A DNA stretch of 64,000 bases from Escherichia phage vB_EcoM-VpaE1. Each line of letters opens with the position of its first letter. The first letter of the stretch is position 1. Position numbers and translations under genes: made by a program. The DNA is taken from sequence record KM657822; one strand, given 5' to 3'. A model generated the notes under the pieces. It made no database searches, was not told the DNA's origin, and saw only the letters and a list, made by a program, of their open reading frames with translations. Shown here in pieces: positions 29,293-42,061 of the stretch.

Positions 29293-29487
29293 ATGCCTAC
29301 AATCCTAGCAATTCTTCTAAAAAATCTAGGTAGCTTCTTCTGGAAACTCATTTTATCCCTTCTAAGTGAATACATGATTGAGAAAGTGTTCTTTAAGCTT
29401 GCAAGATACCTTGCGAGTAAAACAGACACGCCTATCGATGATGAGTTCGTAGATAACTTAGAAAAAGCTTTTAAGGGGGAGAAATAA
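29293..29487 (+). CDS. small membrane protein (holin-like candidate)
   Basis: 64 aa, hydrophobic N-terminal half, charged C-terminus. Confidence 0.3.
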   Translation: MPTILAILLKNLGSFFWKLILSLLSEYMIEKVFFKLARYLASKTDTPIDDEFVDNLEKAFKGEK

Positions 29488-29859
29488 ATGAAGTGGCTAG
29501 AGGAAGCTTTTAAAAACAATATTGGTGCAATTGTTGTTGGTATTTTTAGTGTTATTGGGATGTATACCACCATGCAAGTTTCAAGTGGTAAGCAAGAAGT
29601 GTCTATCACAACAAAGTTACAGCAGCTAGATAATTATTCCAAAAGTAATTATTCAGCTATTCGTGATTTACAGTCTGACATGAGACTGCTTCAGTTAGGG
29701 ATGGAGAACCAGAAAGTCCAGTTAGAGAATGTTAAGGGAGAGAACGCAAAACTTACTAAGACTCTTGATAAATTCTCTGATAGCGTGAACAATCTGGCTC
29801 AGTCAGTATCAGCCCTCCAAGCTATTACTGAAAAGAACACAAAGAATACTGAAAAGTAA
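29488..29859 (+). CDS. N-terminal TM plus coiled-coil protein (spanin- or holin-like candidate)
   Basis: 123 aa; TM helix IGAIVVGIFSVIGMY then heptad-rich region. Confidence 0.35.
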   Translation: MKWLEEAFKNNIGAIVVGIFSVIGMYTTMQVSSGKQEVSITTKLQQLDNYSKSNYSAIRDLQSDMRLLQLGMENQKVQLENVKGENAKLTKTLDKFSDSVNNLAQSVSALQAITEKNTKNTEK

Positions 29860-29865
29860 AGTTTA

Positions 29866-29893
29866 AGGCTCCTTTTTACGGGAGCCTTTTTTG
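29866..29893 (+). terminator. rho-independent terminator between convergent genes
   Basis: AGGCTCC-tttttacg-GGAGCCT followed by TTTTTTG; - strand thyA ends 4 nt away. Confidence 0.55.
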
Positions 29894-29896
29894 TTT

Positions 29897-30796
29897 CTAC
29901 TTACCTACTGACAAAGGTGCTTCAATCTTTCCTGCATGTTGGTAGTTACTAATTCCACCGATAAAGTCACTTGCAGTAAGATGTTTTAAGTCACTTAAAG
30001 TGTTAAGCTGTACACCAATCTCAAAAGTAGGTGCATGAAACTCTTCATTGTTCATCAGTTCATAGACCTGCTTCATATGGTTATGATAAATCTGAGTATC
30101 TCCAAAGACACCTATCAAGTATCGTGGAGTGTATCCAGTCATCTTACAAAGAACTTCTAAGATGAAGCCATAAGACGCAATATTAAACGGAAGTCCTAAA
30201 AAGGTGTCTACAGAACGCTGATACCATTGTAAGTCAACTTCACCTTCATTAGTAATATAAATCTGAAACAGAACATGGCAAGGTGCTAAAGCCATCGAGT
30301 TAGCTGAAATATCTGCTGCATTCCAAGCATTAACAAGCATGTAGCGGTCTGTAATATCACCCTTCATCTTCGTTACTAAGGTCTCTAACTGGTCTACAAC
30401 ACAACCATTATGACCCTCAAAGTTTCTCCACTGAACCCCGTAGATTCTACCACCTGCATCCTCTAACCAGTCTTGTTCAGAAGAGTAGTTAGAGCTTAAC
30501 CAACGTTTAAAATCATCTGACCAGATAGTCCAGCGTTCCCCATCATTTTCACCCCAAGTACGGTAACGGAGTTCACCAAGTTTATTCTCACCATTCAGGA
30601 ACCATAAAGCTTCCCCAATAACTTGCCGTGTAAACACCTGTTTAGATGTTAAGAGTGGAAAACCAGTCCTCATATCAAAACGAAATTGTGGTGGAGCAAA
30701 TGCAGAGATAACATCTCCAGTTCGTGTAGTACGCAGTTCACCAACGGATAAAACATGGTTCAGGATATTTTTGTAACTTGAATCTGCTTGTGACAT
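29897..30796 (-). CDS. thyA: thymidylate synthase
   Basis: ThyA signatures: RTGTG-like RTTRTGD, FPLLTSK, IYGVQWR, active-site Cys in ALAPCH, WYQRSVDTFLGLPFNIASY. Confidence 0.9.
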   Translation of the reverse strand: MSQADSSYKNILNHVLSVGELRTTRTGDVISAFAPPQFRFDMRTGFPLLTSKQVFTRQVIGEALWFLNGENKLGELRYRTWGENDGERWTIWSDDFKRWLSSNYSSEQDWLEDAGGRIYGVQWRNFEGHNGCVVDQLETLVTKMKGDITDRYMLVNAWNAADISANSMALAPCHVLFQIYITNEGEVDLQWYQRSVDTFLGLPFNIASYGFILEVLCKMTGYTPRYLIGVFGDTQIYHNHMKQVYELMNNEEFHAPTFEIGVQLNTLSDLKHLTASDFIGGISNYQHAGKIEAPLSVGK

Positions 30797-30797
30797 A

Positions 30798-31343
30798 TCA
30801 AAAGTGTCCTTTTACTTGTGGAACATAGATTTCAAAGGTTGCTTTACCATCATCTGAGGGTCTTGACTGCACCTTTGCAAATACACGGCTATCATACAGT
30901 TTCTCGAAGAAGTTTTCAAAAGGTAAATACACAGTGGCCTCTTCAGTAACTTTATGGAAAACTGTATGGAAAACTACACCAGCATATGGTAAAGCATTGA
31001 CAAGGACACCTGCACCACCAATTACAAAGACATCTTCATCAATAGAGCTATCAAGATACTTCAAAAATGCTCCAAAGGATTCTTTACTGGCCTTAGCATA
31101 CATTACATCATCTTTGTCAAAGTCTATACCCAAATATGGAACAGAGTTCGTTAAGACGAGGTTTGTACGTTCTGGTAATGGTTTACTACCCAGAGTCTTG
31201 AAAGTCTCATTACCCATCACTACTAAGTTGTTTTTAGTGAGTCTCTTAAACTCTTGCATATCCTGTTTATGTCGAGGCCACGGCATACCAGTTGGAGTAC
31301 CAAACTCCCCATTTTCACCACTTGCAAAGATTAATTTAATCAT
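30798..31343 (-). CDS. folA: dihydrofolate reductase
   Basis: MIKLIFA...GMPW...LVVMGNETFKTLG..PLPERTNLVLT and VFVIGGAGV motifs. Confidence 0.8.
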   Translation of the reverse strand: MIKLIFASGENGEFGTPTGMPWPRHKQDMQEFKRLTKNNLVVMGNETFKTLGSKPLPERTNLVLTNSVPYLGIDFDKDDVMYAKASKESFGAFLKYLDSSIDEDVFVIGGAGVLVNALPYAGVVFHTVFHKVTEEATVYLPFENFFEKLYDSRVFAKVQSRPSDDGKATFEIYVPQVKGHF

Positions 31344-31600
31344 TTTGTAAATCCTTTCTTAATGAACCAGTTGATAGCATTCTTCACAGCTTTATTGCTA
31401 TGGTAGATTAAGTGTGGTGCAGGTTGGTATGAACCATAAGCCCAGAAAGCAATGATTTCATTACATCCTGTACACCTTGTACTCTCTTCAGCAATATGAC
31501 CGTTGACTATTTCACTTACCTCGCCTTGTAAGTCTGTACACCCACAATGTGGACATCGGATAGGTGTTCCATCAGACTCATAGCAGTGTTCAATTTTCAT
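31340..31600 (-). CDS. Zn-ribbon protein, hypothetical
   Basis: 86 aa with CPHCGC ... CTGC cysteine pairs. Confidence 0.4.
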   Translation of the reverse strand: MKIEHCYESDGTPIRCPHCGCTDLQGEVSEIVNGHIAEESTRCTGCNEIIAFWAYGSYQPAPHLIYHSNKAVKNAINWFIKKGFTK

Positions 31601-32116
31601 TTACTTAACCTCAAAAACTGGCTCAAGAACCAATATAAAGTCTACACAGTCATCTTCTTCATCCAGAATACCATCAAAGTTCTTAGGAACGAAGTCGAAG
31701 AGGCTCATAACAAAACAGTCAGAAGTGACCTTAATAGTTCCTCCCATGTTCTCTACAGTTAACACTGTACGACTTTCTTTTACCTCCCTCAGAAGATTAC
31801 CCACAAAGTCATCTAAGAAGTACTTCATCAGTGACTTAAAACCTTTAGGATAATCTGTACCAGAGTATGTTTCAATCTGAGGCACAAGCTTAACATTTAT
31901 ACTAGTCTTTGTTAAGAACGTGTTAGAGAACATACTATCAGGTAACTTACAAACACTCTTTCCAGTACCTTCATGTTCAATCTCAACAAAACCAGCTTCG
32001 TCGCCACATGTAACTATTTTAAAAGATGCTTCATTCTCATACTGTGAAGCCATAAACTTTTTAAGCATCTCTTTAAGGAAATCTGCATGAGCATCTTGTA
32101 AGTAGATATCAATCAT
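31601..32116 (-). CDS. hypothetical protein
   Basis: 171 aa ORF in co-directional - strand operon. Confidence 0.4.
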   Translation of the reverse strand: MIDIYLQDAHADFLKEMLKKFMASQYENEASFKIVTCGDEAGFVEIEHEGTGKSVCKLPDSMFSNTFLTKTSINVKLVPQIETYSGTDYPKGFKSLMKYFLDDFVGNLLREVKESRTVLTVENMGGTIKVTSDCFVMSLFDFVPKNFDGILDEEDDCVDFILVLEPVFEVK

Positions 32117-32129
32117 AGTTAATCACCTA

Positions 32130-32489
32130 TTATGGGAACAAACACTTAATGTCATCGTTTTTGAAAACGAAACTTGTGTAGTTATGACCATCAACATCCA
32201 ACCAAACAGCCTGAACATCTACACCATCAAGATTCTGGTAAAGCTCTTTGATGAAGTGGTCTTTCACAATCTGGCTACTAGTGGTTTCCAGCTTGATGTT
32301 TGAGATTGCTGAACCTACAGCCATATAACCCATAACACGTTTCTTCTCAGTATGCTTAATCTTACCATCTTTGTAAGCCATAATGAGATTGGAGAGAATC
32401 TTCACACCATAATACTTTTCAAGGTGAGTAGGTACACCATAAAAGCCTAATGCGAAATTTTCAGAGTGGATAATGTTTTCACGTTTCAT
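32130..32489 (-). CDS. hypothetical protein
   Basis: 119 aa ORF. Confidence 0.4.
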   Translation of the reverse strand: MKRENIIHSENFALGFYGVPTHLEKYYGVKILSNLIMAYKDGKIKHTEKKRVMGYMAVGSAISNIKLETTSSQIVKDHFIKELYQNLDGVDVQAVWLDVDGHNYTSFVFKNDDIKCLFP

Positions 32490-32490
32490 A

Positions 32491-32820
32491 TTAATCTGCC
32501 AACCTTAAATTGAAATTAACACCAAATTTTTCACATACTCCCAACATATACTCAAGGGAGACGTTACCAGTGAGATGGATTATGTTGGATACACGAGCCT
32601 GAGAGATACCACAAATTTTAGCAACTTGCTCTTGAGAAAGACCTCTGGATTTAATCTCTCTCTTAAAACGATGTGCAACGAAGTCTCTCATTTCGTCTAC
32701 ATCCATTGGACAAATATAACTCTCCATTTCAGCCTCTCTATCAGCCTCCCAATCATCTTGTGGGGCATAAGGGTCAAAAACCTCATTCATCTTTCTTCTT
32801 CCGTTTGCGTGAAGTGTCAA
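32491..32820 (-). CDS. helix-turn-helix DNA-binding protein (XRE-like)
   Basis: LSQEQVAKICGISQARVSNI helix-turn-helix segment; true start may be the internal Met. Confidence 0.45.
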   Translation of the reverse strand: MTLHANGRRKMNEVFDPYAPQDDWEADREAEMESYICPMDVDEMRDFVAHRFKREIKSRGLSQEQVAKICGISQARVSNIIHLTGNVSLEYMLGVCEKFGVNFNLRLAD

Positions 32821-32995
32821 TCAATGAATCTATGTTTGTAGCCCTAACCTTTTCACGTTCATCATTAAGATAATCATCAAGAGCCTTTTCAATCTGTGAA
32901 TCATCTTGACAGATAACTGTAAAGACTGTAAAGCCGTCTGTATCATCAATTATCTTACCATAACCGCTTCTGGGATGTAACTTTTTAAGAGCCAT
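32783..32995 (-). CDS. hypothetical small protein
   Basis: 70 aa ORF, basic C-terminus. Confidence 0.3.
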   Translation of the reverse strand: MALKKLHPRSGYGKIIDDTDGFTVFTVICQDDSQIEKALDDYLNDEREKVRATNIDSLIDTSRKRKKKDE

Positions 32996-32996
32996 A

Positions 32997-33380
32997 TCAA
33001 ATACCTGTGCAGCTTCTGTTTTCTAAGAAATACTCAACACCATACATAGCTTTTTGCATCAAATCTTCTTTAAACTGGATACGGTGGTTGAGCATAGCCT
33101 GTACATCAATATCATCACGGTGTTTCTCTTTAATATTTGCAGATTGCAGGAAATACTCTGCAAGAACGCGATACTGATAGTCAGTTACCTTATCAGTCAT
33201 CTCTGTCAAAGACTCTTCAGAGATTGGTTTAAGTAGCTCACCATTAGCCAAAGCAACACCTTTAACAATCTGGCAAGTATCTTCTGGAACACCTGATAAG
33301 TCCACATTTGGAAGTTCTGTTGCATTGACTGGTGAATTCATTGCCATAACCATTGCAGCAGCTAATAAAATCTTTTTCAT
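32997..33380 (-). CDS. secreted/periplasmic protein with signal peptide
   Basis: N-terminal MKKILLAAAMVMAMNSPVNA resembles a Sec signal peptide with AxA site. Confidence 0.45.
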   Translation of the reverse strand: MKKILLAAAMVMAMNSPVNATELPNVDLSGVPEDTCQIVKGVALANGELLKPISEESLTEMTDKVTDYQYRVLAEYFLQSANIKEKHRDDIDVQAMLNHRIQFKEDLMQKAMYGVEYFLENRSCTGI

Positions 33381-33424
33381 AATGACCTCAAAGTTATATT
33401 AAATTTTGTATTACATTGAGTATA

Positions 33425-33453
33425 AAAATAAGCTATAACACCTGACTTGTCAA
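33425..33453 (-). promoter_or_regulatory. sigma70-like promoter on - strand (TTGACA-N17-TATTTT)
   Basis: Reverse complement of 33448-33453 is TTGACA; -10 TATTTT from 33425-33430; about 45 nt upstream of the 33380 start. Confidence 0.4.
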
Positions 33454-33496
33454 CAGATTTTATAGCTTATTTGGCAGATTTTTTATAAGGCTACTG

Positions 33497-33575
33497 CCAT
33501 CCTTCCATACATTACCTTACCTTACCTCACCTGACCTGACCTGACCCTACCTAACATTACCGTGCCACACCTCAC
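33497..33575. repeat. pentanucleotide-phased ACC array 1
   Basis: ACCTT ACCTT ACCTC ACCTG ACCTG ACCTG ACCCT ACCTA ...: ACC recurs every 5 nt for ~15 units. Confidence 0.7.
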
Positions 33576-33636
33576 TTAAAAACCCTCTTAAAAGACTCTT
33601 AAGTGATGTAATCGAATTTTTATGTAGCTCCGATTA
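33573..33636. repeat. conserved hairpin pair A+B
   Basis: Hairpin A CACTTAA...TTAAGTG then hairpin B AATCG-aatttttatgtagctc-CGATT; repeated at 35111-35178 and partly at 35024-35054 and 35261-35299. Confidence 0.6.
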
Positions 33637-33638
33637 AC

Positions 33639-33710
33639 TACCCATACCAAGCCTAACCTGACCGCACCAAACCTTACAACACCACACCATACCTGACCAT
33701 ACCAAACCTC
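33639..33710. repeat. pentanucleotide-phased ACC array 2
   Basis: CCCAT ACCAA GCCTA ACCTG ACCGC ACCAA ACCTT ... Confidence 0.7.
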
Positions 33711-33732
33711 ATTAAAAGACCCTCTTAAAGAC

Positions 33733-33760
33733 CTTTTAAAAAGGAGCCTCCGAAGAGGCT
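33733..33760 (-). terminator. rho-independent terminator on - strand
   Basis: Hairpin AGCCTC-cgaa-GAGGCT; on the - strand followed by CTTTTTAAAA. Confidence 0.45.
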
Positions 33761-33771
33761 ACCTAGTCAAC

Positions 33772-34212
33772 TTAGAAAGGTTTTCTACGTTGCTTGTTAA
33801 TGTTAGCTTTCATAGCAGCTAAATGGTTTTGCTGTTCAATCAGTCGTGAGCGTTCTTGATGGCTAAGTGCCATAGTGTTCACATTCTCAATCGCTTGAGT
33901 GGCTTGCTTTAAAGCGCGACCAATCTTACCAGACATTTTACGTTTTGCAATAGTTGCTTGATGCTTAGGTTCAACCACACGATAACCAACACCCATTGAA
34001 GCAACCAGATAAATCTTCTCTTCTTTAAGAAGCTTCTCAATAAACTTCTCAAGTCGGTTTAGACGTGTAAGCGCATAAGCCTTCATTTCATCTTCGTACT
34101 TAACAATGTCACCTTGATAAGTTGGCTTCACAATACCTAAGAAGGTGTCCATCTCAGAGTGTGATACAGTGTCACCGTAACTAAACTTTGCTGCTAATGC
34201 TTTTGTATTCAT
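33772..34212 (-). CDS. hypothetical protein (repeat-flanked cassette gene 2)
   Basis: 146 aa ORF, start 3 nt after upstream stop; C-terminus basic. Confidence 0.45.
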   Translation of the reverse strand: MNTKALAAKFSYGDTVSHSEMDTFLGIVKPTYQGDIVKYEDEMKAYALTRLNRLEKFIEKLLKEEKIYLVASMGVGYRVVEPKHQATIAKRKMSGKIGRALKQATQAIENVNTMALSHQERSRLIEQQNHLAAMKANINKQRRKPF

Positions 34213-34214
34213 AA

Positions 34215-34820
<606 letters not shown>

Positions 34821-34898
34821 TTAGTTGATTGTTAAGTTGTTTGTAAAGAACCCTCAACAGAAGACTCTTTAGAAACTTGGTAGATTTTTAACGTGGCT

Positions 34899-34990
34899 AC
34901 TACCATCCACCCATACCATACCGAACCTTACCTTACCAAACCAGACCGCGCCTTACCAAACCAGACCAAACATTACTTTACCCTACCTCA
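34899..34990. repeat. pentanucleotide-phased ACC array 3
   Basis: ATACC ATACC GAACC TTACC TTACC AAACC AGACC ... Confidence 0.7.
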
Positions 34991-35054
34991 TTAAAAGACC
35001 CTCTTAAAGACCTTTTAAAAAGGTAAGTCTCATTTTAATGTAGCTGAGACTAAC

Positions 35055-35108
35055 TACCCATACCTCACCCTACCAGACCAGACCTTACCCTGCCAGACCC
35101 TACCGAAC
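35055..35108. repeat. pentanucleotide-phased ACC array 4
   Basis: CTACC CATAC CTCAC CCTAC CAGAC CAGAC CTTAC CCTGC CAGAC CCTAC. Confidence 0.65.
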
Positions 35109-35174
35109 ATCACTTAAAAATCCTCTTAGAAGACTCTTAAGTGATGTAATCGAATTTTAATGTAGCTCCGATTA

Positions 35175-35262
35175 ACTACCCATACCCTGCTTTACCTTAC
35201 CGTACCGTACTTTACCCTACCGTACCGAACAATACTTAACCCGACCTTACCCTACCGGACAT
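35175..35262. repeat. pentanucleotide-phased ACC array 5
   Basis: Same ACC-every-5-nt pattern, flanked by hairpin A/B copies. Confidence 0.65.
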
Positions 35263-35512
35263 CACTTAAAAACCCTCTTAGAAGACTCTTAAGTGATGCT
35301 GGTGAGTACCCGTTGGTTTATGATGCTCAGTATACTCACCAAATTTTCTATGTCAACAACTTTTATAAAAAAGTTCTGATAGCTATATGCGTCACGAAAC
35401 AAAAGATTGTAAACAAGACACCCATTGCAAAAGATGTGTCCAAAAGCTTACTTGCAACATATGACAATACAAAGACAACCAGTATAAACAAAATGACTGT
35501 ACTGAACATAGT

Positions 35513-41269: not shown

Positions 41270-42061
41270 ATGAATATCGATGTAGAAAAGATGCTTGAAG
41301 AGAAAGGTATTGATGAAGCATTTTTAATCAATTCCGTAGAAAGCATGGCTATGATTCTTCGTGGAAACAACTATACAGAACAGTTTATGCCTGCAATATA
41401 TAACCTGCCTAAAGACAAGTCTGATAACGGTGCTTTTGCAGAACAGGTCAATATGATGCTGACAGACACTACACTTGCTTTGGCATCTATAGTCGTAGGT
41501 GTTGATGCTCTTGCAGAGTTCATTTTTAAGGAGATGCAGAAAAATGACTATATCTCCCTTAACTCTGAAGAGAAGGACTTGTTACTGTCATTAGGTAATA
41601 ATGAGTTAATTTCCATGATAATTTCATCAACAAGTGCTGTTATGGCTGCTCTTGAGAAGCGAATGGAAGAGAAGTTGTCACGATATGAAAAACTTGATTG
41701 GGGTGTAGAAGAACTAAACCAACGAATCCAAGAAATTATCCAGCAAACCAAAGATTCTTTGGAAGAAGCTGTTGAAAATGACTCTGTAGCTGATATAGAA
41801 CCTCTTCAGGTGAAAGTTGCACTGATGATTCCAGCTATCTCTACGATGATGAATATTGTTGCACTAATCCAACTTTCACAGATGATGGGTGTAAGTATTG
41901 AGTTCATTGAAGAGGTGACTGGTGGCGTTAGTATGCAAGCAATCAATGATGTTTTGGTGAACATTGGTGCTTCCATCATTGAAGAGAAACTACGCATTAA
42001 CTTCGGTGATGATTTTGTGAAGCAACTCTCAGCTATGGCTGAAAAAGAGTCTGCTGAGTAA
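41270..42061 (+). CDS. hypothetical protein
   Basis: 263 aa ORF coupled to upstream gene. Confidence 0.4.
   Translation: MNIDVEKMLEEKGIDEAFLINSVESMAMILRGNNYTEQFMPAIYNLPKDKSDNGAFAEQVNMMLTDTTLALASIVVGVDALAEFIFKEMQKNDYISLNSEEKDLLLSLGNNELISMIISSTSAVMAALEKRMEEKLSRYEKLDWGVEELNQRIQEIIQQTKDSLEEAVENDSVADIEPLQVKVALMIPAISTMMNIVALIQLSQMMGVSIEFIEEVTGGVSMQAINDVLVNIGASIIEEKLRINFGDDFVKQLSAMAEKESAE

Follow-up and report, generated by a model that had tools for sequence, protein, structure and literature searches.

Does a phage of the Felix O1 type send a protein of its own into the periplasm of its host and, if so, what might this protein do there? The question is raised by a group of small genes on the minus strand of Escherichia phage vB_EcoM-VpaE1 (sequence record KM657822), at positions 31340 to 33380 of the 64,000-nucleotide stretch that we analysed as a whole and refer to as the window. 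A preliminary description of this DNA had presented the genes as an early cluster of small regulators that lies downstream of the dihydrofolate reductase (DHFR) gene and includes a 127-aa protein with a clear signal peptide, and had put this protein forward as a candidate for superinfection exclusion or for an effect on the host envelope. Based on its sequence and on that of its orthologs, we conclude that the 127-aa protein is very likely exported by the Sec pathway. The region from 31000 to 33800 shares 94-96% DNA identity with more than 200 Felixounavirus genomes, including VpaE1_ev108, ASO1B, wV8 and Felix O1-like Salmonella phages, and by these matches the window is that of a Felixounavirus, a Felix O1-like myovirus. 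The gene and its predicted signal peptide are located as follows.

32997 to 33380, minus strand: 127-aa protein, predicted to be secreted, ortholog of Felix O1 ORF87, phrog_4332
33321 to 33380, minus strand: predicted Sec/signal peptidase I signal peptide, residues 1-20, MKKILLAAAMVMAMNSPVNA followed by TELP, from the heuristic scan, the ortholog architecture and the AlphaFold2 model

The N terminus of the protein is made up of MKK, ILLAAAMVMAM and NSPVNA, followed by TELP, and has a hydrophobic core of 11 residues. We searched the window for signal peptides with a home-made heuristic, not SignalP, that looks for n-, h- and c-regions and for small residues at positions -3 and -1, and that asks for a positively charged n-region, an uncharged h-region of 7-15 residues and a cleavage site 15-35 residues from the N terminus. 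Three of the 140 ATG-initiated open reading frames (ORFs) of at least 50 aa passed, and the 127-aa protein had the top score (4.8); the T4 Spackle protein, included as a positive control, scored 4.3, and the orthologs of the 127-aa protein all passed with scores of 5.0-5.3. The two other passes were rejected, one being an antisense shadow ORF and the other a polytopic DUF7338 protein that is hydrophobic beyond its apparent cleavage site (185 aa, 4000 to 4557 on the plus strand, PF24027, E = 5e-61). In the orthologs the signal-peptide sequence is fully turned over and the n/h/c architecture is kept; the clear signal peptide of the preliminary description stands. Moreover, the A-x-A sites of the orthologs (AYA before D, ASA before N, AAA before M) share one alignment column in lineages that are only 31-35% identical. 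A lipobox ([LVI][ASTVI][GAS]C) is absent from the 127-aa protein, which has no cysteine in residues 1-35, and there is no twin arginine in its N terminus. The Sf13-type orthologs have a cysteine at residue 7, inside the h-region and without a lipobox context.

After removal of the signal peptide, the mature protein would have 107 aa and a mass of approximately 12.2 kDa, and be acidic with an isoelectric point of 4.6. Exactly two cysteines are present in the 127-aa protein, C36 and C124, and both are invariant in the orthologs, as is a loop of the form G47-E-(L)-x-K-(P). Structure prediction, proposed earlier as a check, gave a confident three-helix bundle with residues 1-18 disordered. This AlphaFold2 model was calculated from a seven-sequence alignment and had a mean predicted local distance difference test score of 86, with residues 1-18 below 50 and residues 21-127 mostly above 90; the helices span residues 31-45, 55-86 and 93-121. 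Given the up-down-up topology of the model, one end of the bundle should carry the invariant loop together with the C-terminal tail and both cysteines. Export is well supported because the n/h/c architecture and the A-x-A site are kept in the same alignment column, the cysteines are invariant and residues 1-18 are disordered in the model, and by the same sequence features the signal peptide is very probably cleaved.

The family to which the protein belongs is small. The only match in a scan of PHROGs at E <= 0.01 was phrog_4332, which has no assigned function and comprises hypothetical proteins of the Felix O1 ORF87 / wV8 gp094 type; the match is full length (E = 2.3e-66, residues 1-127 on profile positions 1-126 of 126), and no PHROG of known function was found. 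More than 210 Felixounavirus GenBank records contain hypothetical proteins that are 93-99% identical to it, and orthologs were found in Mooglevirus at 30-35% identity and in a third, metagenomic lineage (L006/P0007) at 31%. A search of 5.8 billion proteins returned four clusters, all with at least 92% identity to the 127-aa protein, and an exhaustive HMMER search of 1.84 billion representatives returned about five genuine clusters. All clusters with a traceable source come from Ounavirinae, and as judged from these searches the family is found only there. Searches with the single protein and with its profile gave no Pfam, PADLOC or PDB sequence matches, and there were no matches to anti-defence families. 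None of the GenBank records examined annotates a signal peptide or a function for phrog_4332 proteins, and neither exclusion nor any other phenotype has been reported for this gene family in the literature that we searched. Since the Felix O1 record, the products of these genes have carried the label of hypothetical proteins in hundreds of genomes; what our analysis adds is the prediction of export, a defined operon, a model of the structure, evidence against membership in known families and the finding that the secreted protein is an outlier in evolutionary rate.

To describe this rate, we compared alleles within Felixounavirus as well as orthologs between genera. Among 25 Felixounavirus alleles, the ratio of nonsynonymous to synonymous polymorphism (pN/pS) of the 127-aa gene was 0.076, with its operon neighbours at 0.02-0.14, and the variable sites were located in the signal-peptide core and in two inter-helix loops. 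The ratio is low, and the gene is therefore considered constrained and functional. Between the window and the Mooglevirus phage Mordin, the 127-aa protein had the lowest identity of all 76 shared ORFs (34%; median 82%). Divergence of a comparable degree was found only in the tail fibres, a minor tail protein and a few small ORFs of unknown function, as can be seen from the identities with Mordin of the proteins that are relevant to the argument.

Tape-measure protein: 83% identity
Hub: 94% identity
Spike: 87% identity
Protein after the spike: 87% identity
29488 to 29859, putative holin: 92% identity
25640 to 29213, tail fibres: 55% and 63% identity
41270 to 42061, minor tail protein: 38% identity

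Within Mooglevirus (Mordin, Sf13 and ESh22) the secreted protein is again the most divergent product of its operon, with 47-58% identity, whereas the putative holin shows 95-98% and the DNA ligase 89-96%. Since the secreted protein diverges and the holin and the injection machinery do not, conserved partners are disfavoured and a target that varies with the lineage or the host is favoured. The rate data are thus compatible with a lineage-specific target in the envelope.

The surroundings of the gene show how it is probably expressed. The features of the transcription unit, in the order in which they would be transcribed, are given below, with the terminators at both sides.

33745 to 33760, minus strand: predicted intrinsic terminator that closes the unit upstream (200-aa and 146-aa genes) and sets that unit apart from the operon (scan; ASO1B annotation)
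33425 to 33453, minus strand: predicted sigma-70-type promoter, TTGACA-17-TATTTT (10 of 12 matches in the scan; annotated at the same place in ASO1B)
33385 to 33389, minus strand: Shine-Dalgarno sequence GAGGT, 4 nt before the start codon (ATG) of the 127-aa gene (read from the sequence)
32783 to 32995, minus strand: 70-aa protein, Felix O1 ORF86, phrog_4473 (E = 2e-45; annotated in relatives)
32491 to 32790, minus strand: 99-aa XRE-family helix-turn-helix (HTH) protein, Felix O1 ORF85 (Pfam HTH_3; phrog_1373 transcriptional regulator, E = 4e-26)
32130 to 32489, minus strand: 119-aa protein, Felix O1 ORF84, phrog_4116 (ORF list, PHROGs)
31601 to 32116, minus strand: 171-aa acidic protein, Felix O1 ORF83, phrog_4422, with an alpha/beta model without assignable fold
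31340 to 31600, minus strand: 86-aa predicted Zn-ribbon protein, Felix O1 ORF82, phrog_2993; its stop codon overlaps the DHFR start (ATGA)
30798 to 31343, minus strand: dihydrofolate reductase, gene 7 of the operon
29897 to 30796, minus strand: thymidylate synthase, last gene of the operon
29865 to 29888: predicted bidirectional intrinsic terminator at the operon end, common to the convergent putative holin gene (scan)

The genes for the secreted 127-aa protein, the 70-aa protein, the HTH protein, the 119-aa and 171-aa proteins, the Zn-ribbon protein, DHFR and thymidylate synthase follow one another with spacers of +1, -8, +1, +13, 0, -4 and +1 nt and correspond to Felix O1 ORFs 87 to 80, of which ORF81 is frd and ORF80 is td. 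No internal terminator was found in the operon, the only intrinsic terminators being the one upstream at 33760-33745 and the one after thymidylate synthase, which corresponds to t79/t80 of the Felix O1 paper (PMC3185647). Because the spacers are short and terminators lie only upstream and after thymidylate synthase, the genes are considered to be transcribed as one polycistron, with the small genes ahead of DHFR. By this layout the region from 31340 to 33380 is the promoter-proximal three-quarters of an eight-gene unit predicted to be transcribed by host RNA polymerase. The small genes had been placed downstream of DHFR, but in terms of transcription they are upstream of it, with one promoter and one terminator for all eight genes. 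The five ORFs named in the preliminary description (those of 86, 171 and 119 aa, the HTH protein and the 127-aa protein) were all found on the minus strand where it had put them, and the count has to be raised to six small genes with the 70-aa ORF that it had missed. The gene order is the same in Felix O1, in Mooglevirus and in the metagenomic lineage, and by this comparison the operon is conserved across Ounavirinae.

A promoter had been expected at about 33440, and the predicted sigma-70-type site indeed lies at that place with elements that are invariant in relatives: TGTTGACA and TATAC are unchanged in Felix O1, Mordin, Sf13 and the metagenomic lineage L006, and the operon promoter of Mooglevirus is close to the consensus (TTGACA-16-TATACT). 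As it is annotated at the same place in ASO1B and is invariant across lineages, the promoter is not regarded as a chance match, and as it is of the host type, phage factors would not be needed for expression of the operon. The copy at 33453 carries a 7-nt insertion, so that TATTTT and not the ancestral TATACT is found 17 nt from the -35 hexamer. The Shine-Dalgarno sequence of the secreted-protein gene is kept as GGAGGT in Mordin and Sf13. Data on the timing of expression are available for the orthologs in Felix O1, with ORF86 left out, from semi-quantitative reverse-transcription PCR (RT-PCR) in S. Typhi: the transcript of ORF87, the ortholog of the secreted-protein gene, was detected and, like those of ORFs 80, 83 and 84, was maximal at 25 min and classified as 'middle', whereas that of ORF81 (DHFR) was maximal at 10 min (PMC3185647, Table 3). 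Judged on these data, the maxima do not fall in the first minutes as would be expected of an immediate-early unit, and 'early' is therefore an imprecise term for the region.

Taken together, these results allow the following scenario for the function of the 127-aa protein. As the first product of the operon it would be made with a classical Sec signal peptide, cleaved by signal peptidase I after residue 20, and released into the periplasm as a soluble, acidic three-helix bundle of approximately 12 kDa, in which a C36-C124 disulfide formed in this compartment probably staples the bundle. The mature bundle may then bind, stoichiometrically, a component of the envelope that varies from one phage lineage or host to another, for which a host periplasmic factor, a factor of the outer membrane or the lipopolysaccharide (LPS) pathway, or the variable receptor-binding apparatus of the phage itself would be candidates. 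Such binding would alter the envelope of the infected cell in such a way that phages of the same kind that arrive later, or that re-adsorb, are excluded or are not wasted. We infer only tentatively that the protein acts in the periplasm by binding an envelope or receptor-binding component that varies with the lineage, and so gives exclusion or receptor masking, and consider this somewhat less than an even chance. Superinfection exclusion or an effect on the envelope, as first proposed, is a plausible role for the protein. Phage-encoded envelope proteins that block a second infection are known: T4 Imm, which is an integral inner-membrane protein, whereas the 127-aa protein would have no transmembrane segment after cleavage, and the lipoproteins T5 Llp and those of the Cor family, whereas the 127-aa protein has no lipobox. 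Llp and Cor block FhuA.

Several points weigh against the proposed binder. The known receptor, the LPS core, lies in the outer leaflet and thus out of direct reach of a soluble protein in the periplasm, and the literature that we searched contained no description of superinfection exclusion in Felix O1-like phages. Cleavage of the signal peptide and the disulfide both rest on prediction. A small helical protein may simply tolerate more substitutions, so that its rapid divergence can come from weak constraint and not from an arms race, and no sign of diversifying selection was seen within the genus among the 25 Felixounavirus alleles. Finally, sequence and fold searches gave only the phrog_4332 family or generic helical bundles, and thus no function based on homology. 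We regard it as rather doubtful, though worth stating, that the protein is the first of a new family, specific to Ounavirinae, of soluble proteins that exclude other phages or mask the receptor from within the periplasm and that have neither sequence nor fold in common with Spackle, Imm, Llp and Cor. Its top divergence would then be the result of an arms race at the envelope, with a host or receptor-binding-protein target specific to the lineage.

The nearest analogue that we found is the superinfection-exclusion protein T4 Spackle (Sp, gp61.3), which is secreted and forms a small, acidic helical bundle with a disulfide bond; in the periplasm it binds to the tail lysozyme gp5 in a 1:1 ratio (PMC7677548). 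Like the 127-aa protein it is encoded by a lytic myovirus, has an MKK-type Sec signal peptide and, as a mature protein, is small, acidic and all-alpha, with a single cysteine pair that connects helix 1 and the C-terminal region; the periplasm would be the place of action of both proteins. The protein could accordingly be imagined to work as Spackle and Imm do, by binding the incoming tape-measure protein, spike or spike-tip trimer and blocking tube penetration or channel formation. Both T4 proteins act by binding to the injection machinery, Imm reportedly to the tape-measure protein (PMC7677548; bioRxiv 10.64898/2026.03.06.709160), and in the Bas63 structure the tape-measure protein, the puncture apparatus and an unassigned density at the tip must cross the periplasm (PMC12609058). 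However, the injection-machinery targets are 83-94% identical between Felixounavirus and Mordin compared to 34% for the secreted protein, which means that they do not co-diverge. Beyond the signal peptide there is no likeness to Spackle in sequence or fold: hhalign of the family profile aligned residues 1-25 only, with a probability of 29%, and the comparison of folds showed no relationship. Furthermore, the target of Spackle has no identified counterpart in Felixounavirus, as a lysozyme goes unmentioned in the cryo-EM study of the minimal Felixounavirus baseplate of Bas63 (PMC12609058) and the endolysin is the only protein annotated as a lysozyme in the examined portions of the ASO1B and Mordin genomes. 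We therefore consider binding to the injection machinery improbable. An equally low probability is given to a role in lysis timing, in which the secreted bundle would act as an RI-like antiholin that binds the periplasmic C-terminal domain of the putative holin and delays lysis. With one N-terminal transmembrane domain and, as its tail, a coiled coil of some 90 residues on the periplasmic side, the putative holin has a topology like that of T4 T, its gene lies about 3 kb from the secreted-protein gene in a convergent unit, the phage carries rIIA and rIIB, and T4 RI is likewise a small secreted helical protein. Yet the putative holin is 80-98% identical across lineages in which the secreted protein, the fastest-evolving gene, is 31-58% identical, and hhalign of the family profile to RI aligned nothing (probability 0.3%). 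In RI the signal-anchor-release domain stays uncleaved, in contrast to the 127-aa protein with its canonical A-x-A cleavage site. As for the putative holin, its assignment is a prediction, since there is no Phage_holin_T match and phrog_4038, to which it belongs, has no assigned function. Lysis inhibition in the Felix O1-like group did not turn up in our literature searches, which were not aimed at it.

The divergence tracks the lineage and the host (Salmonella and E. coli versus Citrobacter and Shigella) and not the phage machinery, and expression in the middle phase alongside replication functions would fit a conditioning of the host. This would also be compatible with a role in host take-over or counter-defence that has nothing to do with other phages, in which the protein would neutralise an enzyme of the host periplasm, a sensor of envelope stress or a defence linked to the envelope that would otherwise abort the infection. 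On the other hand, Felixounavirus phages from Salmonella and from E. coli have nearly identical alleles (93-99%), no PADLOC-related or anti-defence matches were obtained and no candidate host target was identified, and we think this explanation unlikely. Least probable of all is that the hydrophobic N terminus is a membrane anchor or a buried helix, or that the protein is dispensable ballast without a role at the envelope. The case for export is built from the home-made heuristic together with conservation, which leaves some room for such a view, but the hydrophobic core, at 9-11 residues, falls short of the length needed to cross a membrane, an A-x-A site comes after it in all lineages, and the unstructured first 18 residues are detached from the confident domain in the AlphaFold2 model. 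Strong purifying selection and retention in all three lineages speak against dispensability.

Felix O1-like phages are widely used in Salmonella typing, biocontrol and therapy cocktails. Kept in every lineage and yet the fastest-diverging shared gene, the secreted protein is a well-defined candidate for a part in how they condition the host envelope or interact with co-infecting phages. If it gives exclusion or receptor masking, this would affect the design of cocktails, since members might exclude one another, and it would represent an independent structural solution to periplasmic exclusion beside that of T4 Spackle. If there is no exclusion effect, the gain is one of routine annotation and consists of a signal peptide, an operon structure and one extra ORF.

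With respect to the other genes of the operon, the label of small regulators holds for the HTH protein and is unsubstantiated for the remaining small genes, with a regulatory role of the Zn-ribbon protein being possible. The description as an early cluster of regulators is thus weakly supported. The HTH domain that had been named was confirmed by Pfam HTH_3 with 37.1 bits against a cutoff of 23 (E = 3e-9), and weak PDB sequence matches were obtained to PezA, HigA, HipB and C.BclI, which are XRE antitoxins or controller proteins; a match to PDB 8vd6 was discarded as an artefact, since this is a designed repeat protein. Its start is most likely the ATG at 32790, which gives 99 aa as in the orthologs, rather than 32820. 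The N-terminal 40 residues (32671 to 32790, minus strand) form an acidic extension, MNEVFDPYAPQDDWEADREAEMESYICPMD, that is almost invariant between Felixounavirus and Mooglevirus and is better conserved than the HTH domain itself, which suggests a protein-interaction module.

The 86-aa protein had been described as a Zn-ribbon, and this is in agreement with two CxxC pairs, C16/C19 and C43/C46, which show no change between the window, Mordin, Sf13 and the metagenomic lineage L006; on these two conserved knuckles it is a Zn-ribbon with predicted metal binding. It scored 18.8 bits against the Lar restriction-alleviation family (TIGR03655) and 20.6 bits against the ECs_2282 CxxC family, below the respective NCBIfam cutoffs of 39.6 and 37, and the likeness to both families is limited to the Zn knuckles. 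The 70-aa protein has a conserved basic C-terminal tail, SRKRKKKDE, and its gene overlaps the start of the HTH gene by 8 nt. No informative matches were found for the 70-aa and 119-aa proteins in Pfam, PHROGs and further family searches, and an 'NTP hydrolase' label that one GenBank record gives to the 119-aa protein was unsupported.

Upstream of the operon, the intergenic DNA at 33471-33745 and 34859-35298 contains approximately five copies of a repeat element with a length of about 86-200 nt, located between terminators and promoters. On the minus strand it consists of a hairpin, CACTTAAGAG...TTAAGTG, followed by (AGGTN)n pentamers and by a second hairpin, TGGCAGTAGCC...CTGCCA. Tandem Repeats Finder reported a period of 5 with 10.8 copies at 33508-33561, and four consecutive AGGTN units were matched 12 times, all within the repeat spots, against 0.07 expected. 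A single copy is found at the corresponding place in Felix O1, and Mordin lacks the element. The element had no Rfam match, and its RNA fold was not significant (z = -0.5). Copies of it bracket a two-gene unit at 33772-34817 on the minus strand, which encodes the 200-aa and 146-aa proteins (phrog_4652 and phrog_5926, functions unassigned) and has a promoter-like site and a terminator of its own. This unit is missing from Felix O1, where the DNA ligase gene directly precedes ORF87. Of the 278 records matching 29400-35000, 99 cover at least 80% of it, and many alignments end at 33608-33744. From this pattern, the unit looks like an accessory cassette that is exchanged by recombination at the repeats.

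Some further observations were made in the window and in the matching records. The GC skew is inverted over the minus-strand block from about 30 to 40 kb, which encodes thymidylate synthase, DHFR, DNA ligase and DNA polymerase. A Felixounavirus region is also found in MG065668 ('Campylobacter phage A126'), with 95% DNA identity and 97.6% identity of the secreted protein, and in one record labelled as a 'Staphylococcus' phage; mislabelling or contamination is the likely cause of these labels. The minor tail protein homolog at 41270-42061 (plus strand, phrog_4251) lies outside the structural module and adjoins replication genes. It is the third most divergent ORF shared with Mordin and, by sequence comparison, a candidate host-range determinant. 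Just downstream of DNA ligase there is a very hydrophobic ORF of 48 aa (MFSTVILFILVVFVLSYVASKLLD..., 35363 to 35509, minus strand), directly followed by a second TGTTGACA-type promoter at 35329-35356 (TTGACA-16-TATACT, 11 of 12 matches). Mordin has a similar small hydrophobic ORF, unannotated, at the matching position after DNA ligase (L003, approximately 3768-3922), and there the TGTTGACA-type promoter that follows the small membrane ORF drives the secreted-protein gene.

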